A stretch of 64,000 nt of DNA from a virus: the IMG/VR virus record IMGVR_UViG_3300035670_000172, positions 4,403-68,402 of that record; one strand, written 5' to 3'. The translations under genes and the position numbers were made by a program. The notes beneath the pieces were generated by a model, which saw nothing but the letters and a program-made list of their open reading frames with translations, was not told where the DNA came from and searched no databases. Positions 2,190-61,805 of this stretch are shown here, piece after piece (position 1 is the stretch's first letter; each line of letters opens with the position of its first letter).

Positions 2190-2926
2190 AATCATTAAAA
2201 GTATTAAGGAACCCAAAGCCAACGGAAGTTGTAGTGGAAGTTCCAGAGGAGAGCTTTACTACTGCTCAGTTAGTAGATAGCTTGAATAAAGCTATTGATG
2301 AAAATTTGACGGAAAGAAATAAGCCAGAATTTAAAAAAGTAAAAGGGTTTCACCCAAGCTACACCAACCAGTGCTCACGCTATTGGTACTATATGTTTGA
2401 CGGAGTTAGCGTAACTCCAGATTTCAGAGCGCAAACACTTAGAATTTTTGATAATGGTCATGCTGTTCATGACAGGCTGTACGGTTACTTTAGAGATATG
2501 GGCATCCTGGTCGCTGAGGAAATCCCAGTGACCTATTCATCACCTCCAATTGAGGGAACTGCTGATGGAATCATTAATTGGCATGGAGAGAAGTTAATTG
2601 AATTAAAGTCAATTAGCTCAGAAGGCTTTCACTACAGAAAGATGTACAACAAGCCAAAAGATGAACACTACAGACAGGCACAGATTTATATGGAATGCTT
2701 GAATTTAGATGGCGGTTTTGTTATTTATGAATGTAAGAATAATCAAGAAATTCTTCCTATTTATATTGAAAAAGACCAGCCGTTTATAGACAAGCTTTTT
2801 AAGAAATACAGAGATATTTATGGGAATTACACTAGCGGTAATATCCCTGACAGACCGTATAAGAGAACATCTAAGCATTGTTCTGATTGTAATGTGTCTT
2901 CTTTATGCTGGGGAGAAAGTGAGTAA
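2186..2926 (+). CDS. Cas4-like / RecB-family exonuclease
   Basis: N-terminal Cys, GHAVH, GTADG...IELKS, QAQIY, C-terminal CSDC...C (Fe-S ligands). Confidence 0.85.
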   Translation: MKSLKVLRNPKPTEVVVEVPEESFTTAQLVDSLNKAIDENLTERNKPEFKKVKGFHPSYTNQCSRYWYYMFDGVSVTPDFRAQTLRIFDNGHAVHDRLYGYFRDMGILVAEEIPVTYSSPPIEGTADGIINWHGEKLIELKSISSEGFHYRKMYNKPKDEHYRQAQIYMECLNLDGGFVIYECKNNQEILPIYIEKDQPFIDKLFKKYRDIYGNYTSGNIPDRPYKRTSKHCSDCNVSSLCWGESE

Positions 2927-3227
2927 TGAAGAAAGAATTTGCAAGAATTTAGATTGTAGTAAAGCATTTACCCCAAAATCTTATAACAGCATTTATTGCT
3001 CTGCTGAATGCAGGAGATTAGTAACAAATGCAAAATTATTAAATAATTATTATGAAAAAAAAGCAAATATAAATAAAAAAAGAATTTGTAAAACAAAAAA
3101 TTGTGAAACTGTTTTATCAAGATATAATAAAGAAAATATTTGTGAAAAATGTAAAAGAGAGAGGTATGTTCAAAGACTAGTTGGTTGGGGCTGGGATGAA
3201 AAAACCATCAGGGATGGTATTGAGTGA
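2919..3227 (+). CDS. Cys-rich zinc-finger protein
   Basis: C-x4-C, YCSAEC, CEKC; GTG start at 2919 after GGAG. Confidence 0.6.
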   Translation: MSNEERICKNLDCSKAFTPKSYNSIYCSAECRRLVTNAKLLNNYYEKKANINKKRICKTKNCETVLSRYNKENICEKCKRERYVQRLVGWGWDEKTIRDGIE

Positions 3228-3787
3228 ATCTAAAAAATATAGTTAACACAAGTGATAAAAGAATTTTATCAATAGATCCATCATCTCACTCCCTAGGGTG
3301 GGCTGTGATTGATTTTAATAGTGGTTTAAAATTAGTTGATTGCGGTAAAATAAAATTTACAAAAACAAATGACATATCAGTTAAATTTAATGAAATTAAT
3401 GCGGGGATTAAAGAAATTTGTAAAAAATACAGCCCTAGCATGACTATCATTGAACAATCTGTTTACATTCAAAATTTTCAAACAAGTAGGGTTATTTCTT
3501 ATATAATTGGCTACACCTGGGGAATAGTTCAAAACTATTGTTTTAAAGTTATGGATATTAACCCCATTCTTTGGAAACGAGGGATTGGTTATAAAAATAT
3601 TTCTAAATCAGATAAAATAATTTTTGATACGGAATCTAAAAAGAAAAAAGAAAGAAAAGACAGGGTTCGGGATATTGTGCTTGATTATTTTCAAATGTCT
3701 GAAGAAAATGTAAAAGATGACGACATTATTGATGCAATCGGTATTGGTCTTTGGTATTATTTAATGGTGATTTCTAATGGCTCTTGA
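3224..3787 (+). CDS. RuvC-like Holliday junction resolvase
   Basis: ILSIDPS...GWAV, IIEQ, DDIIDAIGIG acidic catalytic motifs. Confidence 0.8.
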   Translation: MNLKNIVNTSDKRILSIDPSSHSLGWAVIDFNSGLKLVDCGKIKFTKTNDISVKFNEINAGIKEICKKYSPSMTIIEQSVYIQNFQTSRVISYIIGYTWGIVQNYCFKVMDINPILWKRGIGYKNISKSDKIIFDTESKKKKERKDRVRDIVLDYFQMSEENVKDDDIIDAIGIGLWYYLMVISNGS

Positions 3788-4070
3788 ACCTTACAAAGAT
3801 AAAAGCTGGCTGTACGAGCACTATGTTAAGAAGCGTATGAATTTAACAGATATTGTTAAATTACTTAAACAAACATACAATACTGAAATAACCCCGCAGG
3901 GCTTATATAACTGGTGCAAAAAGTATGATTTATTAAAGTTTAGGGGAAAGGGTAGAAACCTTTCTGCTACATCTAAAAGACCAAAATCTCCAATGCAACA
4001 AAAAGCTGAGCAAATGAAAAGAGACAGAAGGAAATCCATGCAACAAAAAAAGAAAGGTATGGGAAGATAA
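3777..4070 (+). CDS. putative helix-turn-helix DNA-binding protein
   Basis: YKDKSWLYEHY...LYNWCKKY pattern, basic tail. Confidence 0.55.
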   Translation: MALEPYKDKSWLYEHYVKKRMNLTDIVKLLKQTYNTEITPQGLYNWCKKYDLLKFRGKGRNLSATSKRPKSPMQQKAEQMKRDRRKSMQQKKKGMGR

Positions 4071-4825
4071 TGCAAAGAAGAGTTTCGGGTGCCGATTTAG
4101 GAATATTTGCCGAACTAGACATGGTGTATAACCAGGCAAGGATGATTGAGGCAAGTCAAAATAAAACAAAATATAAATGTTTGGGGTCGGGCAATTGTTG
4201 CACGATAGGATTAACAATCCATATGACTGAGTGTGCAAATATTGCGTTCAATATCACTCAGCAGTTTTATTTGCATTTGGAAAATAAAGGTAAAGAGTAC
4301 GCAGATGAGTGGTTTGGTTCAGTAGTTAGTTCTTTAAAGGAGGCAATGTACGATGAAACATGGCAATTCGGTGGTGAGACTGAGAGAAAATGTTCTTTCT
4401 ATAAAAACGGGTGCACTATCTATGGGTTTAGACCTCTGGTGTGCAGAAGCTATGGGGCTTTTGTCGGTGTTGACGATGTTTGTCCTAGAGAAAGAAATGT
4501 TTACGGCAATGTAGAGCACTTCTCTGGTACCCCAGTTGAGGAAATGGTAAAACAGTTTCAGGGGTTGCTTAAGAGATATTCAAAGGATAAAGATTCAAAC
4601 TATGATGTAGTGGTTTATATGCCTCTCGGAGTTCTCAGTTTTCTTTTAAGCCCAGAAGAATTAGAAGATCTTGCTGATAAAACAGATGATAGGATGTGGA
4701 AAGCTGTTGAAGGCTGGTTTAATTATAGAGTTGAATATACAAAGGTTCATGGGCTACCCCTGCCAAAATTAAGAGAAGCTGCTGATGCTGCTGGGAAAAA
4801 AATTGCGTTTCAAGTAGAGCAGTAA
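4070..4825 (+). CDS. YkgJ/CxxCxxCC-family Fe-S or Zn cluster protein
   Basis: CLGSGNCC...CSFY...GCTIYGFRPLVCRSY. Confidence 0.75.
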   Translation: MQRRVSGADLGIFAELDMVYNQARMIEASQNKTKYKCLGSGNCCTIGLTIHMTECANIAFNITQQFYLHLENKGKEYADEWFGSVVSSLKEAMYDETWQFGGETERKCSFYKNGCTIYGFRPLVCRSYGAFVGVDDVCPRERNVYGNVEHFSGTPVEEMVKQFQGLLKRYSKDKDSNYDVVVYMPLGVLSFLLSPEELEDLADKTDDRMWKAVEGWFNYRVEYTKVHGLPLPKLREAADAAGKKIAFQVEQ

Positions 4826-5856
4826 TGATCACCTGGACAGATAATGGTTCGTCAAGAATTGGTGAGGGCTATGGCGATGCATCGTATCACATTACTAAGT
4901 ATTTAAAATCTAGCGGTCTAGATTTTCACAAGACCGAGCTAGAGCCGCCAGATGAGATCAGCGGTCTGCAAATCGGTTACTCAATTAAAACTAGTATTCA
5001 TGAAGGTGTTGTTATCAATCACTGCCTGCCAGAGTATTACGGTAGTCATGGTGATTATAAGATAGGTTTTTCATATTGGGAGACAACTCAATTACCTAAT
5101 CACTGGGTTGATGAGTGCAACAAGATGGATGAAATATGGACTACATCTGATTTTATGAGATCGGTATTTATCTATAGCGGCGTGACTAAGCCAGTGTATA
5201 GTTTTAAACTAGGGGTTGACCCAGAAATCTATTATCCAGTAAAAAGGAGCAGAAAAAGCCCTTTTACATTTTTAAGTATAGGCTCACCCTCAACAAGAAA
5301 AAATTCTCAAGTAGCTGTTGATGCTTTTATAAAAATGTTTGGCGGTAACGATGGGTACCGTATGATATACAAATCCAAAGGTCCTCCAGATGCTAGATCA
5401 TTTAGCAATGGAATGAAGGGGGCGCTAAACCATCCACAAATTGATATCATTGATTATGAAATTAGTACAGAAGAATTAGGGAAGCTTTATGACAAAGCAG
5501 ACTGCTTAGTTTACCCAACAAGCGGAGAAGGGTGGGGTCTTCTACCTTTCCAGGCGATAGCCAAAGGTATCCCAACGATATGCACAAATTTTACTGCATG
5601 TGCAGAGTTTGCTCATCTTTCTGTGCCGCTTGATTATTCAGTCTCAGATTACAAGATGTCTGGTATATATGAGGGTGCTGGACACTGGGCAATGCCAGAT
5701 TTCAGCGATTTGTGTGATAAAATGTTGTATGTAGTAAATAACTACGAAAGAGTCTCTAATGAGACATATTTATCCGCATTGTACATACAAGACACTATGA
5801 CATGGGAAAAGGTTTCAAAGGAGTACATAGATAGATTATGTCAGATATTGAAGTAG
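4825..5856 (+). CDS. GT4-like glycosyltransferase
   Basis: WET, DEIWTTS, RKN, GEGWGLLPFQAIAKGIPTI. Confidence 0.85.
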   Translation: MITWTDNGSSRIGEGYGDASYHITKYLKSSGLDFHKTELEPPDEISGLQIGYSIKTSIHEGVVINHCLPEYYGSHGDYKIGFSYWETTQLPNHWVDECNKMDEIWTTSDFMRSVFIYSGVTKPVYSFKLGVDPEIYYPVKRSRKSPFTFLSIGSPSTRKNSQVAVDAFIKMFGGNDGYRMIYKSKGPPDARSFSNGMKGALNHPQIDIIDYEISTEELGKLYDKADCLVYPTSGEGWGLLPFQAIAKGIPTICTNFTACAEFAHLSVPLDYSVSDYKMSGIYEGAGHWAMPDFSDLCDKMLYVVNNYERVSNETYLSALYIQDTMTWEKVSKEYIDRLCQILK

Positions 5857-15567: not shown

Positions 15568-15885
15568 TTGGGATTGAATAATGAATTTTGGAGAGAAAAC
15601 GCTAAATGTAGAAAGATCGGACCAAGCCTTTTCTTTTCTGAAGATGAAGATGGCAATCTTTCTAGAAAAAACGATCTAGACGCAAAAAAAATGTGTAAAG
15701 ATTGCCCAGTTAAAACTGAGTGTCTTGCTTATGCATTAAATCAGCAAATTAGATTCGGTATATGGGGAGGCTTTACTTCTCGTGAAAGATCATCAATAGC
15801 TAAAAAATTCGGACTTGATGATTACACAGCGATAACCAGTGAGTTAGTAAATAAATCATTACACATGATCAAATATAAAAATTAA
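15568..15885 (+). CDS. whiB: WhiB-family Fe-S transcription factor
   Basis: W-x3-AKC...FF...AKKMCKDCPVKTECL...GIWGGFTSRER. Confidence 0.92.
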   Translation: MGLNNEFWRENAKCRKIGPSLFFSEDEDGNLSRKNDLDAKKMCKDCPVKTECLAYALNQQIRFGIWGGFTSRERSSIAKKFGLDDYTAITSELVNKSLHMIKYKN

Positions 15886-28406: not shown

Positions 28407-28830
28407 CGAAAACAATGATCATGAAGATGACTTTAATGATTCTTGGATGGAGGTGTTTGCTTTAAGAATAGGCACAGACAATATCCTAGACTTCTTAGAG
28501 AGAATAAAGCCTGAGTTTGATGATATCAATAGGATAGCTGAAATAGAAATGTCTCTGATCTCCCTAAAGCAAATGAAGGGCTATTTTAAAAGAAAGGCGG
28601 ATGAGATTGATAATATCTTAGATAATCATCCAGCCTGGGGAAATAGTATAAAAGCGGGGGATAAGGAAGAATATCCTACAGGGTTCAATATGCCTATAGA
28701 TATGCATTCAGGATATCCTCATACACATAGTACAGCAGAATGGAAACCAGATCTTGATTTGGTAACTAATGAATCAGATATGATTAAAGATAATATCATT
28801 CCATTTAGATTTAAAGATAATAATAACTAA
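28399..28830 (+). CDS. hypothetical protein
   Basis: last ORF of the + strand block. Confidence 0.65.
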   Translation: MSNENNDHEDDFNDSWMEVFALRIGTDNILDFLERIKPEFDDINRIAEIEMSLISLKQMKGYFKRKADEIDNILDNHPAWGNSIKAGDKEEYPTGFNMPIDMHSGYPHTHSTAEWKPDLDLVTNESDMIKDNIIPFRFKDNNN

Positions 28831-29350
28831 TTTGAATTGATAGAAGAAATAGGCAAAAAACTGCTAGCGTGTGAGTGGAGTGAGCTCTAATATATCTCTA
28901 ATATATTCAATAAGACTCCAGTTCATATCATGGTCATATCATGTATATATTAATAATATGTAATTGATATATCACATACAGGCAAAGGAAAAGCTCGGAA
29001 ATAGGCATAAATATAGCTTATTTTCGGGCTTTTTTTTGTCTAAAAACAGGTAATAAAAGCAAAAAAATAAGCAAAAACATAGCTAAATGCTACTAAAACA
29101 GTCAAGAATTGGGTAAAAAAAGCTCAGAATTTGAGAACGCATATATACCCCTATAGTAAATACCTATATATCTTCCTCTAGAGGATATTAGATACATAAA
29201 TATAAATTAACATCCCCCTTTTTATAGGGCTTTATGTAGATTCTAATATCGTTCCATTAATCGTAGAAATTGAGTGTGCATTTCTGGCGGCTTAAACAGT
29301 TTGATATATGCACTAGTAGATGTATTGATTACATCGGTGTAATTCCCCAG

Positions 29351-29393
29351 CTTTGATACAACCTTTGATGCAGGCTTTGATCGCCCCTATGAT
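29351..29393. repeat. 12-bp-period array CTTTGAT x3 + CTATGAT
   Basis: copies at 29351, 29363, 29375, 29387. Confidence 0.6.
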
Positions 29394-29641
29394 CCGCCTA
29401 AAAAAATTTGTCCTCGGTGCAAAGATAAAAGAAAAAGCAAAACAAAATACAATTTAGGAACTAATTGTATAAAGTAACATCATAATTTGAGAATGTATTA
29501 AAAGCAAAAGAAAAATTAAAAGAAAAACGGCGGGTGTACAAATGAATGTTCCACATTGATTTGGAACACCCGCCCGATATAAGAATTTGAGTTGTGATTA
29601 GAAATGTATATTAAATTAGAATAAGGAAGGATACAAGCATA

Positions 29642-29682
29642 GCTGGTGCTCACGGTGCGCCTAGCACTAAGTGAGCACCAGC
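29642..29682 (+). repeat. bulged hairpin element, opposite orientation (F1)
   Basis: GCTGGTGCTCAC-GGTGC-GCCTA-GCACT-AA-GTGAGCACCAGC. Confidence 0.85.
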
Positions 29683-29686
29683 GAAT

Positions 29687-29715
29687 AAAAGCCCCCAGCG
29701 AGTGCTGGGGGCTTT
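29687..29715 (-). terminator. cassette 1 terminator
   Basis: GCCCCCAGC/GCTGGGGGC stem with A-tract on the left. Confidence 0.8.
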
Positions 29716-29735
29716 CGTACTCAATGCGTATGCAA

Positions 29736-30044
29736 TTACTTGCGATTACGCTTTTTCTTTTGCACCTTTAATGCAACAAGCATTTCACCATCCTCTGTCC
29801 AAAAAATTGACACATCACGCTGTGCAATTTCTGCGCATTTGGCGACACGATTACGCCATGTGTTCTTGTGGTTCACATAGTCATCATCGGATGGTGTGCC
29901 CTGTGCCTTGTCAATTCTCACAGCGTCACCATCAATGCTTGCATCAAGCGACAGGATATCGGCAACAATTTCATCATCATGAAACGCCTCACGCCCACGC
30001 TTGACCAAATTGGTCACTTGATTAAGGTTTATCTTTTGGCTCAT
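29736..30044 (-). CDS. cassette 1: KRGR-motif basic protein, paralog A (102 aa)
   Basis: GAGGG RBS, MSQKINLNQVTNLVKRGRE...KKKRNRK. Confidence 0.85.
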   Translation of the reverse strand: MSQKINLNQVTNLVKRGREAFHDDEIVADILSLDASIDGDAVRIDKAQGTPSDDDYVNHKNTWRNRVAKCAEIAQRDVSIFWTEDGEMLVALKVQKKKRNRK

Positions 30045-30092
30045 TGTTATTCCCTCTGTCAAGGTGGTTAGGAATTGTCCTTGACATCAATT

Positions 30093-30195
30093 ACTTTATC
30101 ATATGCGGAGAATATGTGTATTCAATTTAAGAGAGACCTGATCCCCTTATGGCGGTTGTGCAACTTGATGCTAAGCGCACCGTTGCACCACCGCC
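30093..30195 (-). promoter_or_regulatory. cassette 1 promoter + upstream hairpin
   Basis: TGCGCTTAGCA-N43-TTGAAT-N21-TAAAGT. Confidence 0.8.
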
Positions 30196-30250
30196 GACCA
30201 TGTGAGTTGAGAATGTGTATTAAAAACATCTATACCTGGACTCCCAAAAA

Positions 30251-30291
30251 GCTGGCGTTCACGGTGCGACTAGCACCAAGTGAACGCCAGC
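30251..30291 (+). repeat. bulged hairpin element, opposite orientation (F2)
   Basis: GCTGGCGTTCAC-GGTGC-GACTA-GCACC-AA-GTGAACGCCAGC. Confidence 0.85.
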
Positions 30292-30295
30292 AAAC

Positions 30296-30322
30296 AAAAG
30301 CCCCCAGCGGGTGCTGGGGGCT
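30296..30322 (-). terminator. cassette 2 terminator
   Basis: GCCCCCAGC/GCTGGGGGC stem with A-tract. Confidence 0.8.
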
Positions 30323-30343
30323 ATTGCCAACGCTGATTAGGCG

Positions 30344-30652
30344 TTACTTGCGCTTGCGCTTAGCCTTGACAGGCTTGAGTGAGACGATCATCTCGCCTTC
30401 GGTAGTCCAATGAATGGACACTTCACGATCAGCCTGCTCGGCAGACTTCGCAACTCGGTTACGCCAAGTGTTTTTGTGGTTGAGATATTCATCATCGCTC
30501 GGGTCTCCCGTTGCGGTTGGAAAGATGAACGCATCGCCTTCAATGCTCGCATCTAATGCGAGAATATCAGCAACCAACTCGGGGTCGTTATATCCTTCAC
30601 GACCACGCTTGACTAGGTTTGTAACTTCATTCAGGTTTATTTTCATTGCCAT
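30344..30652 (-). CDS. cassette 2: KRGR-motif basic protein, paralog B
   Basis: MAMKINLNEVTNLVKRGREG...KRKRK; AAGGGA RBS. Confidence 0.85.
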   Translation of the reverse strand: MAMKINLNEVTNLVKRGREGYNDPELVADILALDASIEGDAFIFPTATGDPSDDEYLNHKNTWRNRVAKSAEQADREVSIHWTTEGEMIVSLKPVKAKRKRK

Positions 30653-30705
30653 AGGTATATCCCTTATCGGCAGGGGTCTAGGTTTGTTTTCCTACCGACA
30701 AATAC

Positions 30706-30807
30706 ACAATATCATATGCGATGAGAATGTGTATTCAATATAATATGTAACTCATACCCAGCCAGCGGTTGTGCAACTTGATGCTAGGCGCACCGTTGCA
30801 CCACCGC
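30706..30807 (-). promoter_or_regulatory. cassette 2 promoter + upstream hairpin
   Basis: TGCGCCTAGCA-N43-TTGAAT-N21-TATTGT. Confidence 0.8.
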
Positions 30808-30865
30808 CTGCGGGTGAGGATTGAGAATTTGTACTAAACATGTGAATGTATGTAGCTCTATACGA

Positions 30866-30904
30866 CAGGTGTTCACGGTGCGAATAGCACAAAGTGAACA
30901 CCTG
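30866..30904 (+). repeat. bulged hairpin element, opposite orientation (F3)
   Basis: CAGGTGTTCAC-GGTGC-GAATA-GCACA-AA-GTGAACACCTG. Confidence 0.85.
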
Positions 30905-30909
30905 CGAAG

Positions 30910-30938
30910 AAAAGCCCCCATGCCGAAGCATGGGGGCT
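30910..30938 (-). terminator. cassette 3 terminator
   Basis: AGCCCCCATGC/GCATGGGGGCT stem, UUCG loop on minus strand, A-tract. Confidence 0.8.
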
Positions 30939-30988
30939 CTCTCCGTTGCAGGGATAACCCTGCGCCACACTGCCGAAGCGAGTGTAGA

Positions 30989-31297
30989 TTACTTGCGTGT
31001 GCGCTTCTTCTTCACTGGCTTGAGCGAGACAATCATTTGACCGTCTTCAGTCCAGTGAATTGAGCATTCACGGTCTGCCTGTTCTGCAGACTTCGCAACA
31101 CGATTGCGCCAAGTGTTCTTGTGATTGACGAACTCTTCGTCACTTGGATCACCTGTTGCACTCTCGTAAATGAATGCGTCACCGTCAATGGAAGCGTCAA
31201 GCGACAGAATGTCTGCCACTAGTTCAGGGTCATTGTAACCCTCACGCCCACGCTTGACGAGGTTCGTGACCTCATTCAGATTGATTTTCTGTGCCAT
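30989..31297 (-). CDS. cassette 3: KRGR-motif basic protein, paralog C
   Basis: MAQKINLNEVTNLVKRGREG...KKRTRK; GGGAG RBS. Confidence 0.85.
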   Translation of the reverse strand: MAQKINLNEVTNLVKRGREGYNDPELVADILSLDASIDGDAFIYESATGDPSDEEFVNHKNTWRNRVAKSAEQADRECSIHWTEDGQMIVSLKPVKKKRTRK

Positions 31298-31370
31298 TAT
31301 ATTTCTCCCTGTTCATGAACTACCCCACCCAAAGGGTATGGGTGGTATTAGGTGTTCACCAACACTTCAT

Positions 31371-31472
31371 ACAATACCCAATGGTATGAGAATATCTATT
31401 CAATATATGAGATCATTTATCACCAGTTAGCGGTTGTGCAACTTTCTGCTAATCGCACCGTAGCCCCACCGC
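31371..31472 (-). promoter_or_regulatory. cassette 3 promoter + upstream hairpin
   Basis: TGCGATTAGCA-N43-TTGAAT-N21-TATTGT. Confidence 0.8.
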
Positions 31473-31547
31473 CAAATCGTCTTGTGAGCATGTGAATATA
31501 TATTAAATATTGAAATGGTTACGATACGATTGGGTCGGAGTTCAGGC

Positions 31548-31590
31548 AAAAAAAAACCCCCCAAGCCTCGGGGGTGAGGCTTGAGGGGTT
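31548..31590 (-). terminator. cassette 4 terminator
   Basis: CAAGCCTC/GAGGCTTG stem extended by C/G runs, A9 tract. Confidence 0.75.
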
Positions 31591-31606
31591 CGCTGGAGAA
31601 GCGACC

Positions 31607-31870
31607 TTATTGCTTGGTAATGACTGGCACTGCTATCTTACCGTTTTCCAGTGTGTACCATAACACACTGACTTTCTTATCTCCTGCGAGGCTGATAATG
31701 CGAGCACGAACACGGTTTTTGTTGGGTAGTGTGTTCGGCACTGCTCGGCGTGAGGCAACGACATCATAGACACTGCTCACCTCATCTACACACTTGGCAA
31801 GGTAAGCGTCATAGTAACGCTTGCGCCCACGCTTGGCAGTCTGTATTGAGCCTCTCTGTACTTTACGCAT
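31607..31870 (-). CDS. cassette 4: divergent KRGR-family protein (87 aa)
   Basis: AAGGAG RBS then ATG 31870; AKRGRKRYYD...NKNRVRARI...KVSVLW aligns with paralogs A-C. Confidence 0.75.
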   Translation of the reverse strand: MRKVQRGSIQTAKRGRKRYYDAYLAKCVDEVSSVYDVVASRRAVPNTLPNKNRVRARIISLAGDKKVSVLWYTLENGKIAVPVITKQ

Positions 31871-31917
31871 TTGCTTTCTCCTTGTCAGCGGGGTTAGGGT
31901 AATCGCTGACAGACATA

Positions 31918-32018
31918 ACCTTACAATATGGTATGAGAATATGTATTCAATGTGAACGCACCATGACACCCTGTCAACTGGTGTGCAATTTGTTGCTAGC
32001 CGCATCATCGCCCTCCAG
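31918..32018 (-). promoter_or_regulatory. cassette 4 promoter + upstream hairpin
   Basis: TGCGGCTAGCA-N43-TTGAAT-N21-TAAGGT. Confidence 0.8.
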
Positions 32019-32084
32019 CGAAATGTGATGAGAATTTTGTATGTATTAAATATCCAGAGATGTTCAGCTCAGTTCGGTGGGAGT

Positions 32085-32116
32085 TTCCCCCTCGCACCCG
32101 TAGGCACGAGGGGGAA
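32085..32116 (-). terminator. cassette 5 terminator-like hairpin
   Basis: TTCCCCCTCG/CGAGGGGGAA; weak U-tail. Confidence 0.6.
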
Positions 32117-32119
32117 GTT

Positions 32120-32305
32120 TCACTTGGATAGGTTGAGAGCGTGGCTGTGGACACGCCTGATTTGCTTGCGGACAATACCCCGCAGGCTCTCCCTGCAATT
32201 AGGGCAACACTTGGTCAATATGTATGTCTCCGCCTGAACAGGGACACTGGATGTTCTGCCATTGGCATAAATACCATTGACCATACGGATATGTGTGGGG
32301 TTCAT
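32120..32305 (-). CDS. cassette 5 gene 2: small Cys-containing protein
   Basis: ATGA overlap with upstream gene; CCPNC. Confidence 0.6.
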   Translation of the reverse strand: MNPTHIRMVNGIYANGRTSSVPVQAETYILTKCCPNCRESLRGIVRKQIRRVHSHALNLSK

Positions 32306-32523
32306 TCTGCACCGCCGAACATGCTATCCCAGCACTTGTCGTGGAAGCCGTTGATGAGTTGCTCACGCTGGGCTGGGGTAAGGGTAGGGAAGCAATTCTG
32401 AATGAGTTCGCCTGCCCACATGCGGGTCTTGCCGATCTCCCAGTCGTTGAAGTCTATGGTGATCTCACCATAACACTTGCACTCGGGGCAGAGCGGGGTT
32501 GGAACGGTTATCATAGTTTTCAC
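32302..32523 (-). CDS. cassette 5 gene 1: Zn-binding hypothetical protein
   Basis: CPEC...IQNCFPTLTPAQREQLINGFHDKCWD; GGAG RBS before GTG 32523 (alternative ATG 32514). Confidence 0.75.
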   Translation of the reverse strand: MKTMITVPTPLCPECKCYGEITIDFNDWEIGKTRMWAGELIQNCFPTLTPAQREQLINGFHDKCWDSMFGGAE

Positions 32524-32567
32524 TGCAATCTCCAATCTGTGCCAACGGGATTGTTGGCAACGACATA

Positions 32568-32670
32568 ACCTTAGCGTATGGCTTGAGAATGTGTATTCAA
32601 TGTTTGACCTGGCTGTATCCCTTTCCGCTGTCGTTCAATTTATTGCTAGACGCATCATCGCACGCCAGCG
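32568..32670 (-). promoter_or_regulatory. cassette 5 promoter + upstream hairpin
   Basis: TGCGTCTAGCA-N43-TTGAAT-N21-TAAGGT. Confidence 0.8.
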
Positions 32671-32735
32671 AAATGCGATGAGATCGTGAATGTGTATTAA
32701 ACATTGTGACAATCTCATCGCAGTACGCTTGGGGT

Positions 32736-32763
32736 TCTCCCCCCGCCCGAAGGCGGGGGGAGA
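32736..32763 (-). terminator. cassette 6 terminator-like hairpin
   Basis: TCTCCCCCCGCC-CGAA-GGCGGGGGGAGA (C-UUCG-G on minus strand). Confidence 0.7.
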
Positions 32764-32775
32764 GGGGATTGATTG

Positions 32776-33039
32776 TCATTGTGTGACGAAGGAAAGGTAA
32801 TCCATTTCCTCAATTGAACCCTGAACATCTGTGAACAGTTGTTCAATGTCGCTCAACTTGTCCTGAACTTCACCAATGAACTCTTGGCGCAGGGCAATCT
32901 TCATGTCAACCACAATGCTGAGCATCTGTGCGCTCATATCCATTGGGCTGATCAAGCCAGCTTCTAGTTGCCTAGCAACTTTGACTGCAGCCTCATGAGC
33001 AAGTGTGAGTGCCCTTGGGTGATCGGGTAAGTGTGTCAT
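32776..33039 (-). CDS. cassette 6: helical hypothetical protein
   Basis: AAGGAG RBS, 87 aa. Confidence 0.8.
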   Translation of the reverse strand: MTHLPDHPRALTLAHEAAVKVARQLEAGLISPMDMSAQMLSIVVDMKIALRQEFIGEVQDKLSDIEQLFTDVQGSIEEMDYLSFVTQ

Positions 33040-33085
33040 TGCTATCTCCTTGTCAAGGGGGTATGGAATGTCCTTGACAACTTCT

Positions 33086-33186
33086 ACATTACCCGATGAG
33101 GTGAGAATGTGTATTCAATCTGTAATGTCCTTCCCTTCCATTGAACTGGTGTGCAACTTGTTGCTAGACGCATCGCCGCCCTCCAG
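33086..33186 (-). promoter_or_regulatory. cassette 6 promoter + upstream hairpin
   Basis: TGCGTCTAGCA-N43-TTGAAT-N21-TAATGT. Confidence 0.8.
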
Positions 33187-33260
33187 CGATTGTAATGAGA
33201 AAATGTGAATGTATTAAAAATTGAAACTGTCTAAGCACAATCGGATCGGAGTTCAGGCAC

Positions 33261-33293
33261 AAAAAAATCCCCCAAGCCCGAAGGCTTGGGGGA
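33261..33293 (-). terminator. cassette 7 terminator
   Basis: TCCCCCAAGCC-CGAA-GGCTTGGGGGA plus A7. Confidence 0.85.
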
Positions 33294-33312
33294 CTGGGGG
33301 ACTGACTATGAG

Positions 33313-33492
33313 TTATTGCTGAGCGTTGCGCTCGGCAATTGTTTTCTCATACGAGCGAAGCAACATTGCCAAGCCTTGGATTGCTTGAGTGTTGCCCGTC
33401 TGGGTTGCTCGGTTGAGCGCACCCGACACAACGAGGAATTGTTCCTCAAGTGTCATTGGCTTTCGTGGAGCAATATCGTTCTGCTTTTTCAT
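33313..33492 (-). CDS. cassette 7: hypothetical protein (59 aa, absent from ORF track)
   Basis: AAGGAG RBS; MKKQNDIAPRKPMTLEEQFLVVSGALNRATQTGNTQAIQGLAMLLRSYEKTIAERNAQQ. Confidence 0.8.
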   Translation of the reverse strand: MKKQNDIAPRKPMTLEEQFLVVSGALNRATQTGNTQAIQGLAMLLRSYEKTIAERNAQQ

Positions 33493-33536
33493 TGCTTCTC
33501 CTTGTCGGTGGGGTTAGGAGTATCACCGACACTCAT

Positions 33537-33637
33537 ACCTTACCCAATGGCTTGAGAATGTGTATTCAATGTAAGAGTGTCATCATATGCAGTAAACTGG
33601 TGTGCAACTTACTGCTATTCGCAACGCCGCACTCCAG
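33537..33637 (-). promoter_or_regulatory. cassette 7 promoter + upstream hairpin
   Basis: TGCGAATAGCA-N43-TTGAAT-N21-TAAGGT. Confidence 0.8.
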
Positions 33638-33650
33638 CTCTTCTGTAATT

Positions 33651-33680
33651 AAAAACCCCCAAGCCCGAAGGCTTGGGGGT
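33651..33680 (-). terminator. cassette 8 terminator
   Basis: CCCCCAAGCC-CGAA-GGCTTGGGGG plus A5. Confidence 0.85.
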
Positions 33681-33700
33681 CTGTGTGAATGAATTGTCAA

Positions 33701-33913
33701 TCACTTGTTCTTTTTCAACTCAAACAATTCCATTCGCAACGCTTGAACACTCTTTACTGCATTGTCATAGTCGTTCTCTATCCTGCTGGTGACATCATAG
33801 AGTGCGGTGAATGCTTGCCTGTGATCATCGTTGTTCATGTCTAGTAAGATGTAGATTGCATCTAGTGCGGGTCCAAAGTAACTTCTCCACACTCCGTCAT
33901 GATCCTTGTACAT
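33701..33913 (-). CDS. cassette 8: hypothetical protein (70 aa)
   Basis: AAGGAG RBS, ATG 33913 (MYKDHDGVW...). Confidence 0.8.
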   Translation of the reverse strand: MYKDHDGVWRSYFGPALDAIYILLDMNNDDHRQAFTALYDVTSRIENDYDNAVKSVQALRMELFELKKNK

Positions 33914-33957
33914 TGCCTCTCCTTGTCTGTGCCAGCGGGTTGCTTGGCACATCTCTT

Positions 33958-34059
33958 ACATTATCCAATCGGGTGTGAATGTGTATTCAAGGTAAGAACC
34001 TCATGCCCTCCTTATTGCTGGTGTACAAGTTATTGCTATTCGCATCCTCGCACCCCAGC
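33958..34059 (-). promoter_or_regulatory. cassette 8 promoter + upstream hairpin
   Basis: TGCGAATAGCA-N43-TTGAAT-N21-TAATGT. Confidence 0.8.
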
Positions 34060-34126
34060 GCTTATGCCATGAGACTCAGAATGTGTATTAAACATCAAGA
34101 GAATCATGGCACAAGCAGATTGGGGT

Positions 34127-34154
34127 TCTCCCCCCACCCGAAGGTGAGGGGAGA
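34127..34154 (-). terminator. cassette 9 terminator-like hairpin
   Basis: TCTCCCCCCACC-CGAA-GGTGAGGGGAGA. Confidence 0.65.
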
Positions 34155-34159
34155 TCGTA

Positions 34160-34429
34160 TCAGTCGTAGATACGGTACCTGTCTTGTTGCTTCTCCAAGA
34201 CATGAGCCTGACGATACTTGTCAAACATCTCGCACCAAATCTTTGCGAGTGTCAATGACCCTGCAACGAAGCGCTCTACTTCATGTTGCATCTTGCCAGT
34301 CTCATCAGTGACATAGCACCAAGCAATATAGTTTGGTGTGTCGTCATGAGCCTTGTAGATCTCGTACATATGCCAATATGTCCAAGCGTACTCGGCTCTA
34401 CCGATACTTACCCACTTCATATCACTCAT
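34160..34429 (-). CDS. cassette 9: hypothetical protein
   Basis: GAAAGGA RBS; SLTLAKIWCE motif. Confidence 0.8.
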   Translation of the reverse strand: MSDMKWVSIGRAEYAWTYWHMYEIYKAHDDTPNYIAWCYVTDETGKMQHEVERFVAGSLTLAKIWCEMFDKYRQAHVLEKQQDRYRIYD

Positions 34430-34474
34430 GGGATATTCCTTTCTATCGGGGCTAGGTTTGTTCCGACAAGAGAT

Positions 34475-34578
34475 ACCTTAGCAAGTGAGACCCAAATGTG
34501 TATTCAATCTGAGAGCTCCTTCTACGCCTTGCTGCTGGTGTACAACTTGTTGCTAATCGCACCGTTGCCCACCACCGC
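34475..34578 (-). promoter_or_regulatory. cassette 9 promoter + upstream hairpin
   Basis: TGCGATTAGCA-N43-TTGAAT-N21-TAAGGT. Confidence 0.8.
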
Positions 34579-34661
34579 AGGCATGTCGTTCTTTTGGTGA
34601 GTGAAGTAAATATGTATTCAACTTAAGAATGATCTGCCTGCGAATGGGTGGGTGTTGGCAC

Positions 34662-34709
34662 AAAAAAAGAACCCCGAACGCTTCAGGGGGTGAGAAGCGT
34701 TCGGGGTTC
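34662..34709 (-). terminator. cassette 10 terminator
   Basis: GAACCCCGAACGCTTC/GAAGCGTTCGGGGTTC plus A7. Confidence 0.85.
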
Positions 34710-34712
34710 GGG

Positions 34713-34799
34713 TCAGAATGCTAGACGAAGTGCGCCTGACAAGATACTGAATATCAAGCAAGCGTACACTATGCCAGCGCCAATTTGTCCGAGTGTCAT
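34713..34799 (-). CDS. cassette 10 gene 2: 28-aa single-TM peptide
   Basis: ATGA overlap; MTLGQIGAGIVYACLIFSILSGALRLAF, ending at the terminator. Confidence 0.6.
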   Translation of the reverse strand: MTLGQIGAGIVYACLIFSILSGALRLAF

Positions 34800-35023
34800 T
34801 GGGATACCTTGCGATACTCAAGCACCTCGTAGTGATTGCCTGCGGGGTGGAATTGGGCACTTACGGTAATCTCAACTACACCGCCGTCAAGTTTGAACCT
34901 GAATACTTGGTATTCCCAAGTCTCATCAACCTCAACGGGGATAGTGTTGGATAGGATAAGGTTCAGTGCACGCTTGCCGAGCAAGGCACGCTGAACGGTT
35001 TCGCTTGTGTCTATGGTGGACAT
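34796..35023 (-). CDS. cassette 10 gene 1: hypothetical protein
   Basis: GAAAGGGA RBS, ATG 35023 (MSTIDTSET...). Confidence 0.8.
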   Translation of the reverse strand: MSTIDTSETVQRALLGKRALNLILSNTIPVEVDETWEYQVFRFKLDGGVVEITVSAQFHPAGNHYEVLEYRKVSQ

Positions 35024-35064
35024 AGTTCCCTTTCTGTCTCGGCGGGATTGCCTTGACAACCATT

Positions 35065-35166
35065 ACCTTACCAAGTGAGTACCGAATGTGTATTCAATGT
35101 CCGATCACCCTTGCCCCCTGTTGAGTGGTGTTCCACTTTCTGCTACTCGCATCGTAGACCAACACC
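35065..35166 (-). promoter_or_regulatory. cassette 10 promoter + upstream hairpin
   Basis: TGCGAGTAGCA-N43-TTGAAT-N21-TAAGGT. Confidence 0.8.
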
Positions 35167-35272
35167 GAAACGGGATTTGTGAATTGCGCTTTGCGCTTTG
35201 TGTCGTGTCTTGTTTGTTGTGAATGTACTCAATGAGTGCAAGTGCCTGGTGCATATGGGTGGGAGGAAGCAC

Positions 35273-35306
35273 AAAAAAAAGGGGGAGGAGCCGAAGCCCC
35301 TCCCCC
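35273..35306 (-). terminator. cassette 11 terminator
   Basis: GGGGGAGG/CCTCCCCC stem plus A8. Confidence 0.8.
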
Positions 35307-35327
35307 ACTTGATTGCCCTGACGGGTC

Positions 35328-35585
35328 TTACATCAAGTCCTTTGCCATCTGGCTGACAGCCTCTGCACGAGCCTTGAGGTTCACCAACAAGATTGTCGCC
35401 TCGTTGATTGCAGTGGTCAAGTCTTGCTTGATGGTCTCCATGCGGAGTACATCTGCGATCTGGTCAAGACCGATTGCATTGGACATGTCAGTGCCTTCGC
35501 TCATGGCAACTTCAGCGACCCGTGTGAGCCAACTGAAGCACTGAACGGATGTAGCCTGCACTGGTTCTGCATGCTTCTTACTCAT
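35328..35585 (-). CDS. cassette 11: helical hypothetical protein
   Basis: AGGAG RBS, ATG 35585 (MSKKHAEPV...). Confidence 0.8.
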   Translation of the reverse strand: MSKKHAEPVQATSVQCFSWLTRVAEVAMSEGTDMSNAIGLDQIADVLRMETIKQDLTTAINEATILLVNLKARAEAVSQMAKDLM

Positions 35586-35630
35586 GATTGTTCTCCTGTC
35601 AGGATGTCTGGGCATCTCGTTGACAAATAC

Positions 35631-35732
35631 ACTGTATCAAATCACTTGCGAATGTGTATTCAATTCACTTGCATCCTCTTCCCCATTTTGCGGGTGTACA
35701 ACTCTGTGCTAGACGCACCGTTGCACGCCCGC
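35631..35732 (-). promoter_or_regulatory. cassette 11 promoter + upstream hairpin
   Basis: TGCGTCTAGCA-N43-TTGAAT-N21-TACAGT. Confidence 0.8.
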
Positions 35733-35861
35733 ATTGACCCTCCCCGACACAGGGTCCGCAGAACACAAAAAAACATAAAGTAACACTCATAAAATATATA
35801 CTCAAATTTTGGATGGGATGGTGCAGTGCGGGTATAGGAGTATAAAAGTTTGGGGGAGAAT

Positions 35862-35952
35862 AAAAAAGACCGCTAGAGATGCACATGCCCCTGGGGTTGA
35901 GCCCAGAGGCATCTGCACCTATAACGGTCCTAAGGTTAGCTTTCGCTGCCTT
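35862..35952 (-). ncRNA. candidate ~90-nt small RNA
   Basis: TGTG-TATACT extended -10 at 35957-35966, GAAA-loop hairpin, long hairpin ending in a U6 tract. Confidence 0.55.
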
Positions 35953-36210
35953 TATCAGTATACACAGATACTAATTTGCGGGGTAGTAATAATGATTGGG
36001 TGTATTACCGAGAGTTCCGATAGAAGCCATGACCTTTGAAGTTGATTCCTGGCGGGGAGAATATTTGTTTAATTGGAAGGTCGCACTCAGGACAAGTATC
36101 TCTTACTTGCTCTTCAGACATCTTTCTTCTTTCTTCGTACAGATGCTGGTTAGGACAACGGTAGTGATAGATAGCCATATGTTATATAGTATACATGTTA
36201 TACTTGGTAA

Positions 36211-36612
36211 ATGTACGAATATAATGTTAAGAAGGTAACAAAAGTAGTAGATGGTGACACGATTGATGTGGACATTGATCTGGGTTTCAACATCTCCTAC
36301 ACACAGCGTGTTCGCTTGGCTGGAATTGACACCCCCGAGTCACGCACCAAAGACCTCCGAGAGAAGGCTCTGGGGCTTGAGGTTAAAAATAAAGTCAAGA
36401 ATGCGATAGATAATGCCAAAACAATTATTATAAAAACAGAGCTCCCCGATAGCACCGAGAAATACGGGCGCATTCTGGGCTGGGTGTATCTGGATAACTC
36501 TCTCAAGTCATTAAACGAACAACTCATTGACGAGGGCTATGCTTGGGGATACATGGGCGCAACCAAAGTCAAAGACTTTGACGCACTGCTCGCAAAGCGG
36601 GTGGGTAAATGA
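36211..36612 (+). CDS. thermonuclease (SNase-family)
   Basis: VVDGDTIDV, RVRLAGIDTPE, EKYGRILG. Confidence 0.9.
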   Translation: MYEYNVKKVTKVVDGDTIDVDIDLGFNISYTQRVRLAGIDTPESRTKDLREKALGLEVKNKVKNAIDNAKTIIIKTELPDSTEKYGRILGWVYLDNSLKSLNEQLIDEGYAWGYMGATKVKDFDALLAKRVGK

Positions 36613-36854
36613 GAGTATGGATTGACCAAGACCTATGTACTGGAGATGGTCTGTGCGCCGAGATAGCCCCCGATGTTTTCACCATGCTGGAGGATGGATT
36701 AGCCTATGTCCAAGAGAACGGCAAGATTTACTCCAAGCTCCGAGGAAACCCCGAAGGCGCAGAAGGCATGGCATCTTTCGCTGACGCAAGACTTGATGAT
36801 GTGATTGAAGCGGCAACCGAATGCCCTGGCGAATGCATTTTCATTGAGCCATAA
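36609..36854 (+). CDS. ferredoxin (actinobacterial Fer4_13/15-type)
   Basis: VWIDQDLCTGDGLCAEIAPDVF...ECPGECI. Confidence 0.9.
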   Translation: MRVWIDQDLCTGDGLCAEIAPDVFTMLEDGLAYVQENGKIYSKLRGNPEGAEGMASFADARLDDVIEAATECPGECIFIEP

Positions 36855-36924
36855 AGACCACAACAGCCACAAGCAAGCAAACTTTTTTTAGTTAGTATTT
36901 ACCCGTTTTTCGCCACCGCTAAAA

Positions 36925-37221
36925 TTATTCCAAATCTTTAAATTCGGGGAAGTACTTCTCAATAGCTTTATCCCGACTGATTCCATAATTGACGCACCAT
37001 TCCTGGAGGAGACCGTTGGCAATATCCCGCCATCTATCTCGTTCCGCCTCTAACAGCTTCATCTCGTTAAAAGTATCCATATCCATTTTGAGCATTTTAC
37101 TCTTATCCATAAAATCAACCTCCGATCCGCAATCTCCAGTTCCTTCAAAGGAACACTGTGACTTCCAAGGTGTCATGTCGTAAACATCACACCACTTTAC
37201 GCCGCATGGTAGTACGCCCAT
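36925..37221 (-). CDS. hypothetical protein
   Basis: coupled to upstream gene. Confidence 0.55.
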   Translation of the reverse strand: MGVLPCGVKWCDVYDMTPWKSQCSFEGTGDCGSEVDFMDKSKMLKMDMDTFNEMKLLEAERDRWRDIANGLLQEWCVNYGISRDKAIEKYFPEFKDLE

Positions 37222-60332: not shown

Positions 60333-61805
60333 ATGAATGTTGTAGTGGTAGGCTCAGGCACTGCGGGTTTAATATCTGCTATATATTTAAAACAATCTTT
60401 CCCTAAATATAATATTAAAGTTATTTCATCATCATCAATTGGCATTATTGGTGTTGGTGAGGGTTCAACTGAGCACTGGAGGCAATTCCAGGATTACTGT
60501 GGAATTGATCCTCTTGATATGATCATAAACACAGATGCAACTTATAAACTAGGAATTCGTTTTGAAGGCTGGACAAAACACACTCAGGATTACTTTCATA
60601 GCATTAACTCAGCTGGCGCTCTTCATAAGGGAAATTTCATACCAAGCTATGCGGATGCTGTATTGGAAAATGAACTGCTGACAAATCGGTTCTCTTCTCT
60701 CGGGATTAAAAGAGATGAGATTGATAATATCAAAGATCATCCTCGCTATGCAAATCAATTTCATTTTGATACATTTAAAACAAATGAGTATTTTATAAAT
60801 ATAGCAAAAAAAAGAGGGATTGTTTTTATTGATGACGAAATCACGAATGTTAATATAGATTCTGAATCTGGATTTATTAATAGCGTTAGTTTAAAAAATA
60901 ATAAAGATATTAAAGGTGATTTTTTTATTGATGCTAGTGGTTTTAAAAGAGTGCTAATGAGTAAACTTCCTAACCAGGATTTTGTCTCATACAGAGACTA
61001 TCTTTCGTGCGACTCAGCGATAGCTTTTCCAACAGAAAGTGATCCATCTGGAACGATCAAGCCGTATACAAGGGCAATCGCTATGAAAAACGGGTGGAGA
61101 TGGGAAATTCCAACTCAAAAAAGAAGAGGGAATGGCTATGTGTTCTCTTCAAAATACGCTACTGAGACAGAAATAGTTGATGAGCTATCAGAAACATTTT
61201 CTAGAGAAATCATTCCTGCAAGATCTTTTAGGTTTGAACCTGGTTACTATAAAAAAACATGGCAGTTTAATTGTGTTGCTATTGGTTTATCTGCAGCATT
61301 TGTTGAACCATTGGAGGCAACTTCAATCAGCACAGCAATACAGCAAGTAATAATTCTTTCATCCCATCTATCTACTTTCAATAGAAATACTAGATTTGGA
61401 ATTGAAGAATACCACAGGCAAGTTGATTCACTTATGGAAAATATTCTTGCCATGATCTCTATGCATTACATTACTGATAGAGATGATACTGTTATGTGGA
61501 GAGAGCAAAGAAATATGAAAAAACCAGATCTAGTTCAGAGGCTGCTTGGGTTATGGCAAGAAAGACTTCCAGAGCCTCAAGATATACCAAGGGCTGGCTT
61601 TGAATTATTTCATGTTTATCATTTTTATCATGTAGCACAGGGTCAAGGTCTAATAAATAAAGATAATGCAAAAATTCAACTTGATTCCTATGACTCAAAT
61701 TCTTTTATTAAAAATTGGTATAATACATATAGTAATGCAAGAAATCTAAAACCACTTATAGACCATGCAAGAGCGCTGAGGAATTTGTATGGTAGAAATA
61801 GATAA
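60333..61805 (+). CDS. tryptophan-halogenase-family flavoprotein
   Basis: VVGSGTAG, IGVGEGST, ATYKLGI, FIDASGF, GWRWEIP, FVEPLEATSI. Confidence 0.9.
   Translation: MNVVVVGSGTAGLISAIYLKQSFPKYNIKVISSSSIGIIGVGEGSTEHWRQFQDYCGIDPLDMIINTDATYKLGIRFEGWTKHTQDYFHSINSAGALHKGNFIPSYADAVLENELLTNRFSSLGIKRDEIDNIKDHPRYANQFHFDTFKTNEYFINIAKKRGIVFIDDEITNVNIDSESGFINSVSLKNNKDIKGDFFIDASGFKRVLMSKLPNQDFVSYRDYLSCDSAIAFPTESDPSGTIKPYTRAIAMKNGWRWEIPTQKRRGNGYVFSSKYATETEIVDELSETFSREIIPARSFRFEPGYYKKTWQFNCVAIGLSAAFVEPLEATSISTAIQQVIILSSHLSTFNRNTRFGIEEYHRQVDSLMENILAMISMHYITDRDDTVMWREQRNMKKPDLVQRLLGLWQERLPEPQDIPRAGFELFHVYHFYHVAQGQGLINKDNAKIQLDSYDSNSFIKNWYNTYSNARNLKPLIDHARALRNLYGRNR

Follow-up and report, generated by a model that had tools for sequence, protein, structure and literature searches.

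The cassette array and its repeated module

The 64,000-nucleotide (nt) window analysed here is part of the virus record IMGVR_UViG_3300035670_000172 (68.4 kb; CheckV completeness 66%), which derives from an uncultured lake phage, and all coordinates refer to positions in this window unless another record is named. Between positions 29600 and 35740, on the minus strand, lies an array of 11 monocistronic cassettes, in which eleven small genes are each preceded by one unit composed of a hairpin and a predicted promoter. The portal and the capsid of this phage are of the HK97 type, and the host is probably an actinobacterium. The array differs from its surroundings in base composition, with 47–50% G+C (29.6–35.8 kb) as compared with about 33% in the remaining genome; the G+C peak of a complete relative's genome is likewise its array.

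It had been proposed for this array (hereafter the original prediction) that an upstream core, the hexamer TTGAAT and a TANNNT hexamer follow one another at invariant distances of 43 nt (N1) and 21 nt (N2) in all units. Inside the window this geometry is indeed exact: ATTCAA-N43-TGCTANNCGCA gives 11 plus-strand matches, at each of the sites that had been proposed, and none in 100 shuffles, while the whole pattern, TGCG..TAGCA-N43-TTGAAT-N21-TA...T, occurs on the minus strand in 11 of 11 units and never in dinucleotide-preserving shuffles. The hexamers are also those that had been listed, namely TAAGGT in five units, TATTGT and TAATGT in two each, TAAAGT and TACAGT in one each. Searched alone, TGCTANNCGCA has 14 matches against 0.28 expected, and the three additional ones (29656, 30265 and 30879) are reverse-oriented.

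In general, going 5' to 3' along the minus strand, a unit begins with the previous gene's terminator and an incomplete copy of the promoter box, followed by a 45-nt hairpin, a 25-nt linker, the box, a spacer, the –10 element and a second hairpin in the 5' untranslated region (UTR). The box, TTGAATACA(C/T)AT, contains TTGAAT. The 3' base of the upstream hairpin lies 25 nt before the box, a figure taken from ungapped alignments (across phages the distance is given from the tip centre to the box), and the hairpin stands about 76 nt upstream of the –10, with the upstream element extending to about –110 and the module measuring about 105 base pairs (bp). A GG dinucleotide is conserved 4–6 nt 3' of the hairpin, the linker holding this near-invariant GG 19 nt before the box, at about –60. 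The spacer ends in G-N-TANNNT, a –10 of the actinobacterial type, with the G at –14 present, by reading, in 10 of the 11 window units and TANNNT in all 11; its presence in all of the 74 modules compared below follows from the construction of the search. Housekeeping sigma-70/SigA promoters have spacers of 16–19 nt between –35 and –10 and start transcription about 7 nt behind the latter. TTGAAT, at 20–21 nt from TANNNT, falls beyond that range and, as had been argued, is not a canonical –35; the canonical slot holds AATACA or ATACAC, which agree with TTGACA at three positions at most (by reading).

Module 1 (30093–30195; 69 bits with a covariance model of the hairpin) consists of the hairpin at 30151–30195 (tip 30169–30179), the linker, TTGAAT at 30120–30125 and the –10 TAAAGT at 30093–30098. 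The same order of hairpin, linker, TTGAAT and –10 is found on the minus strand in module 2 (30706–30808; TTGAAT 30733–30738, TATTGT 30706–30711), module 3 (31371–31473; TTGAAT 31398–31403, TATTGT), module 4 (31918–32020; TTGAAT 31945–31950, TAAGGT), module 5 (32568–32670; TTGAAT 32595–32600, TAAGGT), module 6 (33086–33188; TTGAAT 33113–33118, TAATGT), module 7 (33537–33639; TTGAAT 33564–33569, TAAGGT), module 8 (33958–34060; TTGAAT 33985–33990, TAATGT), module 9 (34475–34577; TTGAAT 34502–34507, TAAGGT), module 10 (35065–35167; TTGAAT 35092–35097, TAAGGT) and module 11, the first of the array (35631–35733; TTGAAT 35658–35663, TACAGT). Elsewhere in the window the box and the hairpin core give merely chance-level matches with 3 mismatches, no further copies of the pattern were found in the phage's own 68.4-kb record, and megablast of positions 30000–36000 against a phage collection returned no match. 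The covariance model recovers 11 forward and 3 reverse copies in the window, plus weaker opposite-strand echoes at the same sites, and in the complete 108.8-kb relative its matches are confined to the array of that phage (57.97–62.56 kb).

The partial box copy that precedes each hairpin, TTTAATACAC...CTCA..CA, lacks a –10; it was considered as a second promoter and rejected, since by reading there is no TANNNT at a constant distance behind it. A sigma-54-type interpretation of the hairpin tip (GG-N10-GC) has the wrong spacing, as judged by eye, and a dimeric operator within the box (GAAT-N4-ATTC) was discarded because in unit 1 a 2-nt shift of the ATTC half, seen by eye, destroys its dyad.

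The second hairpin, TGTC...GACA, which also covaries, lies between each –10 and the start codon (30050–35628, minus strand) and ends at the ribosome-binding site. Its loop is often CCTAACCCC, and its 5' arm begins about 7 nt after the –10, a distance that is fixed too.

Hairpin folding and spacing in the window and in related phages

The original prediction placed the upstream element at about –88. The data show that this core is no linear box but the tip of a folded hairpin. Covariation was tested on 32 distinct forward hairpins, taken from the window and from four related contigs: pairing extends to 85.7% of the cells, the covariation score is 0.290 as compared with 0.131 in shuffles (reached by 0 of 500), both sides have changed in 9 of the 18 hairpin pairs, and pairing falls to 24–46% when the pairing partners are slid by 1–3 columns. 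The tip, a 3-bp stem TGC/GCA with a GNNTA loop and a 3' AA bulge, sits on this covarying stem. The tip stem itself covaries in the related contig L021 (TGC/GCA, TAT/ATA and CGC/GCG), and distant relatives carry another loop. Folding favours the sense strand, which has 46 G·U cells versus 9 in its complement and 85.7% versus 79.2% pairing; the sense hairpin is the more stable one in 67 of 74 modules, by a mean of 4.2 kcal/mol, and with DNA parameters in 63 of 79, a set that includes a handful of hairpins not linked to a promoter. A search of positions 28500–37000 against Rfam 15 gave four weak matches, all below the gathering score and none on a hairpin.

Relatives were collected in two ways. 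A pattern scan of virus contigs returned 70 stretches, nearly all of them single chance matches, with arrays in L021, L027/L077, L030 and L035/L062, and a protein search with the KRGR family, which is encoded by several of the cargo genes (see below), reached the distant phages L084 (identical to L085), L088–L090, L091, L092 and L093, among which L088–L090 belong to the record G001 (108,840 bp; CheckV 100% complete). Altogether, 74 distinct modules from 10 sources keep the order of hairpin, linker of about 25 nt, box, spacer of 20–21 nt, –10 and 5' UTR hairpin, and the orientation is fixed in 74 of 74 promoter-linked hairpins. The exact numbers differ from phage to phage. The window, L021, L030 and L035 have an N1 of 43 and L084 has one of 42 (9 of 9 units); in L027, 8 of 9 units lack a loop-side base and have 42, the remaining one keeping 43. 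N2 is 21 in every scored module of the window, L021, L027, L030 and L035, and every module of L084 and L090–L093 has 20. The tip reads TGCG..TAGCT in L084 and is a TTCA, TTTA or TTAA tetraloop on (T)GC/GC(A) in L090–L093, and in L092 and L093 the box is TTGAGCATAC. The distance from tip centre to box spans 46.5–49.5 nt and is mostly constant within one phage. The claim of invariance is then correct for the window and does not extend to relatives, in which N1 can be 42, N2 can be 20 and the core sequence can be another one.

The original prediction also held that the intervening bases diverge without insertions or deletions, which is borne out in the window: the 25-nt linkers have a mean pairwise identity of 46% (28–60%) and never change in length, and the last 10 nt of the spacer, its variable half, are 52% identical at unchanged length. 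Neighbouring segments do vary, from 41 to 73 nt between –10 and start codon and from 99 to 142 nt between the upstream box copy and the box, so that flanking segments differ in length by 32–43 nt. Moreover, unit 1 of the window has gained two bases (AT) after ACACAT and lost two (AT) further on, its spacer remaining at 21 nt, and the unit at 5058 of L027 shows the reverse pair of compensating changes, again with a spacer of 21 nt. Since diverged linkers lack indels, indels are compensated and nearby segments are variable, the spacing is, on this comparative evidence, under selection. Together with the 74 modules found in relatives, these observations agree with the view that the three elements are physically coupled.

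A coding cause of the indel-free stretch was rejected, as the plus-strand frames differ among units, with a stop directly after ATTCAA in unit 2, and it is also contradicted by the single-nucleotide differences of both spacers in relatives. A mini-open reading frame running from the linker to the TGA inside TTGAAT is not conserved, an open ATG/GTG..TGA being present in 24 of 74 modules, in none of the 8 of L090 and in none of the 7 of L093. The consensus fold of linker and promoter, computed over 35 units, is empty, with no RNA pairing between the two. Given this empty fold and the lack of a conserved reading frame, the constraint acts on the geometry of the DNA. As a separate observation, ATGs in the 74 distinct linkers of the window and L021–L093 favour the frame of the TGA within TTGAAT (29 of 40 ATGs).

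Cargo genes, reverse-oriented hairpins and candidate readers

The genes carried by the cassettes, all on the minus strand, encode small proteins. Cargoes 1 (29736–30044), 2 (30344–30652) and 3 (30989–31297) are KRGR-family proteins of 102 amino acids (aa) each, and cargo 4 (31607–31870) is a basic 87-aa protein with a KRGRK stretch, whose start was assigned from its ribosome-binding site. Cargo 5 (32302–32535), a small protein with an uncertain start, has a weak match to a PHROG of unknown function. The remaining ones are ORFans: cargo 6 (32776–33039, 87 aa), cargo 7 (33313–33492, 59 aa), cargo 8 (33701–33913, 70 aa), cargo 9 (34160–34429, 89 aa), cargo 10 (34796–35023, 75 aa) and cargo 11 (35328–35585, 85 aa), where the starts of cargoes 8, 10 and 11 are predicted. 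Among the 10 cargo proteins scanned, none exceeded the Pfam cut-off and one matched a PHROG, with unknown function.

The small KRGR proteins are basic and have tails rich in Arg and Lys. The family has no Pfam or PHROG name, falls only into unnamed clusters of a language-model atlas, and is itself small, a search of 1.84 billion proteins yielding 30 representatives at E ≤ 0.001; its fold is predicted with a local distance difference test score (pLDDT) of 80.8. In one distant member, the 380-aa protein P0020, the KRGR part is flanked by an RNase_T-type exonuclease domain on its N-terminal side and by pentapeptide repeats on its C-terminal side, a fusion that hints at a nucleic-acid-related role for the family.

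Every KRGR-family gene examined has a near-perfect hairpin right after its terminator. In the window these hairpins, on the plus strand, have a GNNTA tip and lie behind the terminators of KRGR gene 1 (29635–29689; 42.4 bits), gene 2 (30244–30298; 46.7 bits) and gene 3 (30858–30912; 35.7 bits). They are near-perfect palindromes of 12+5 bp and, read on the opposite strand, have the same shape and loop type as the forward hairpins of their own phage in 12 of 12 cases, the loop being GNNTA in the window and L084 and TTYA in G001, L091, L092 and L093. The tips of forward and reverse hairpins thus co-evolve. Because the same loop is found on the opposite strand in all 12 cases, a single recognition system reading either DNA strand is suggested, and because the tip differs between phages, its reader is probably phage-encoded.

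The original prediction named a phage WhiB, the KRGR proteins or a virion-delivered factor as candidates for such a reader. The phage does encode a WhiB-family protein, outside the array and on the plus strand (15589–15795; G000:C1:19991-20197), with an E-value of 8.5e-24, above the Pfam cut-off, and WhiB occurs twice in each of the two matching relatives' records, one of which is complete; it is a candidate trans-acting partner only, and no search result names the factor. No sigma-70 region 2 was found in the phage's own record, and no sigma region 4 in five relatives' records, one of them CheckV 100% complete. A virion-delivered factor in the form of a virion RNA polymerase found no support: a T7-type polymerase domain was not found in the own record, in a Pfam RNA_pol search that matched no control genome either. 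One protein of the complete relative is 4376 aa long (L094:4815-17942, minus strand, record G001); its first ~1200 residues match tape-measure families, the other ~3100 having no named family. By Pfam, PHROGs and language-model features it looks tape-measure- or tail-like, with no sequence match in the PDB and no hint of a polymerase.

After the last cassette there are about 800 nt without an open reading frame (28830–29630, minus strand), which contain a twelfth box-like element, TTTAATACATTCTCA..., an AT-rich region with weak Rfam matches only and, at about 29530–29575, a variant hairpin with the usual outer stem and a different tip. Outside the array, the plus-strand regions 60333–61805, 36609–36854 and 161–5856 encode a tryptophan-halogenase-family protein (E 1.7e-104), two family-4 glycosyltransferases and a small protein that was read by eye as ferredoxin-like.

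A proposed hairpin-coupled promoter and the competing explanations

The reading that we favour, with a probability of roughly 45%, is that each module is an over-spaced promoter of the host RNA polymerase coupled to a strand-specific hairpin, which would be read by a phage-encoded factor. Each cassette would carry one such composite module. TTGAAT, 20–21 nt from the –10, would be too distant for an ordinary –35 contact, and the hairpin would fold on the gene-sense (non-template) DNA strand, with a stem free to vary and a phage-specific tip (GNNTA here, TTYA in distant relatives). A small phage-encoded protein, for which the KRGR family is the leading candidate, would bind this hairpin, with WhiB as a possible bridge to region 4 of sigma-A, and the rigid linker would keep the bound protein in register with the polymerase, switching the whole array on or off together.

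Several known systems resemble parts of this arrangement. MerR-family regulators act on promoters with over-long spacers by distorting the DNA, their operators being dyads within the spacer, and the p4 protein of phi29 binds an inverted repeat near –82 of the A3 promoter, where it reads duplex half-sites of fixed sequence. As in those cases, a factor would make up for the misplaced or missing –35 contact of a –10; unlike them, the stem sequence here is free and what is kept is the pairing and the tip. At the sepX promoter of Streptomyces, which has a non-canonical –35, WhiB binds region 4 of sigma-A and bridges to a factor, WhiA, bound upstream (PMC10243135). The likeness to the present modules lies in the actinobacterial non-canonical –35, the upstream element and the presence of a WhiB in the phage, whereas WhiA, as described there, reads a duplex GACAC motif and the element here is a hairpin reaching about –110 (PMC10243135). 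By analogy, the phage WhiB may act on the array promoters. A more far-reaching version, and a rather doubtful one, is that the modules form a class of hairpin-dependent phage early promoters, in which KRGR, possibly via WhiB on sigma-A region 4, would license the host RNA polymerase without any phage polymerase, the reverse hairpins behind the reader genes providing feedback.

Some of the observations weigh against the favoured reading. About 14% of the hairpin cells are unpaired, and there are an internal loop and a bulge in addition; with such imperfect forward hairpins, spontaneous cruciform extrusion from duplex DNA would be costly. Values of 42 and 43 coexist in L027, and the tip-to-box distance varies by 1–2 nt in L092 and L093, which suggests that the tip position is not read with single-nucleotide precision. 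The KRGR model has no convincing structural relative (best Z 5.5; no Foldseek match at E ≤ 0.001), the link between KRGR and the hairpins may simply reflect KRGR genes being cargo of the same array, and the distant relatives were reached via KRGR itself. The factor that would read the hairpin is a candidate only, and start site, timing and promoter activity are all predicted from the DNA; no RNA run is listed as containing the stretch, and two runs that carry an RNA-Seq label are flagged as probable DNA and consist of contigs. Furthermore, the sense-strand G·U asymmetry would suit an RNA element equally, and the G+C-rich hairpins at the ends of several cassettes lack a T run, so that read-through RNA may extend across the hairpin.

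The last two points lead to an alternative that is unlikely on the whole, namely that the hairpin acts as RNA, is transcribed by read-through and is bound, much as nut/put or RNase III sites are, so as to bring about antitermination, processing, insulation or protection of the 3' end. Apart from the greater stability of the sense strand, such a role would be in keeping with a small tip stem, a pentaloop, a bulge and an asymmetric internal loop, which are typical of protein-binding RNA hairpins, and with the basic, tailed KRGR proteins. The position of the hairpin, behind an intrinsic terminator and before the promoter of its own gene, fits it poorly, and the conservation of the distances to box and –10 to the single nucleotide would be left unexplained, with no RNA pairing to link them. 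The reverse copies, in addition, show the loop on the other strand only, where a sense RNA would carry the complement, and there is no match to an Rfam family.

It is distinctly unlikely that the module is chiefly a recombination scaffold, PeSL- or attC-like, whose geometry combines ordinary promoter constraints with the repeated copying of that scaffold. Some observations would fit this view: relatives keep the scaffold and change the cargo, hairpins and cargo being re-assorted on shared scaffolds between the window, L027 and L030. The first cassette (cargo 11) is conserved as the first in L027 and L030. In L027, seven hairpins and the starts of their linkers are near-identical, and what stands behind each of them, from promoter through UTR to gene, has its orthologue in a window unit with a different hairpin. 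This places joints near the box and has the appearance of concerted evolution or, alternatively, of exchange at such a joint; in module 6, promoter, UTR and gene have orthologues in L027 and L030 that there stand behind other hairpins. The partial box copy 98–142 nt upstream of each box can be counted on the same side. Metagenome contigs at 85% likeness swap single cassettes for unrelated sequence of similar length, and one of them skips 1898 nt between terminator regions, which hints, weakly, at a turnover of cassettes in natural populations.

Integron attC sites act as a folded single strand with variable stem and tip, extrahelical bases that mark the strand and AAC/GTT triplets; they require IntI, and their cassettes are promoterless. 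The array, the folded strand, the variable stem, the extrahelical AA and a conserved CAAC...GTTG recall these sites, but here the tip is conserved, every cassette has its own promoter-like module, and the tyrosine integrase PF00589 was not found in the own record or in five relatives' records (one 100% complete), in a search positive in 14 of 14 control genomes. Shuffling by homology, on the other hand, needs no covarying stem, conserved loop or diverged linker fixed at 25 nt, and copying of the scaffold would homogenize the linkers, yet these are just 46% identical. Among described systems, the PeSL cassettes of T4-type phages come closest to the array as a whole; in them, small ORFan genes of a plastic region are bordered by repeated units, each made up of a strong promoter and a stem-loop (PMC2839356; PMC4122927). 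Self-contained small ORFans, repeated promoter and stem-loop units, and relatives that keep the units and change the genes are common to both, while the PeSL stem-loop, in those accounts, is a terminator and the promoter a standard sigma-70 one (PMC2839356; PMC4122927). The present array has a separate hairpin besides its terminators, with conserved loop, fixed orientation and fixed distance, as well as an over-spaced promoter and a 5' UTR hairpin, and it belongs to a phage that is not T4-like, as seen from its HK97-type portal and capsid and its WhiB.

Quite improbable is a protein-free topological device, in which a cruciform-prone repeat and an over-long spacer would make expression dependent on supercoiling and insulate the tandem cassettes from each other. 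Spacers of 20–21 nt need untwisting for box and –10 to be aligned, the inverted repeat lies where the negative supercoils of the downstream unit and the positive ones of the upstream unit meet, and the reverse copies are near-perfect palindromes. A device of this kind would have no need of a phage-specific loop, an orientation fixed in all modules, an AA bulge or the linker GG, and the forward hairpins, with their imperfect pairing, fold preferentially on one strand.

The early promoters of phage N4 contain a small template-strand DNA hairpin (5–7 bp, 3-nt loop) near the start site, and the reader of this hairpin is a giant virion RNA polymerase, acting together with the host single-stranded DNA-binding protein. 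A strand-specific DNA hairpin with defined loop bases as a determinant of early transcription is what the two systems would share, but the hairpin here is 45 nt long, folds better on the non-template strand and has its sigma-type –10 about 76 nt further downstream, and no such polymerase was found. That it is a promoter for a virion-delivered N4-like polymerase starting at the conserved GG, with two promoters per gene, is hardly credible, even with a GG 4–6 nt behind a strand-specific hairpin limited to an apparently early array and a 4376-aa protein in the complete relative, given that this protein looks tail-like, that the T7-type domain was not found (in a family search positive in no control genome) and that a hairpin promoter would not need fixed spacing to box and –10.

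In the literature searched, supplementary files left out, no description of such a hairpin-promoter module was found. What goes beyond PeSL is the folded, strand-specific hairpin, its selected spacing to a promoter, which shifts in concert between phages, and the co-evolving reverse copies behind KRGR genes. The PeSL idea would thereby be refined, in that the repeated scaffold has an extra selected part which shuffling alone does not explain. With its dozens of natural variants and their compensated changes, the ~105-bp module already amounts to a series of mutants that reporter assays and in vitro transcription could use, in a setting, the freshwater Actinobacteria as hosts, where transcription is almost unstudied. 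If the coupling between hairpin and promoter is functional, the phage would control a block of host-takeover genes through a nucleic-acid structure instead of a linear operator.

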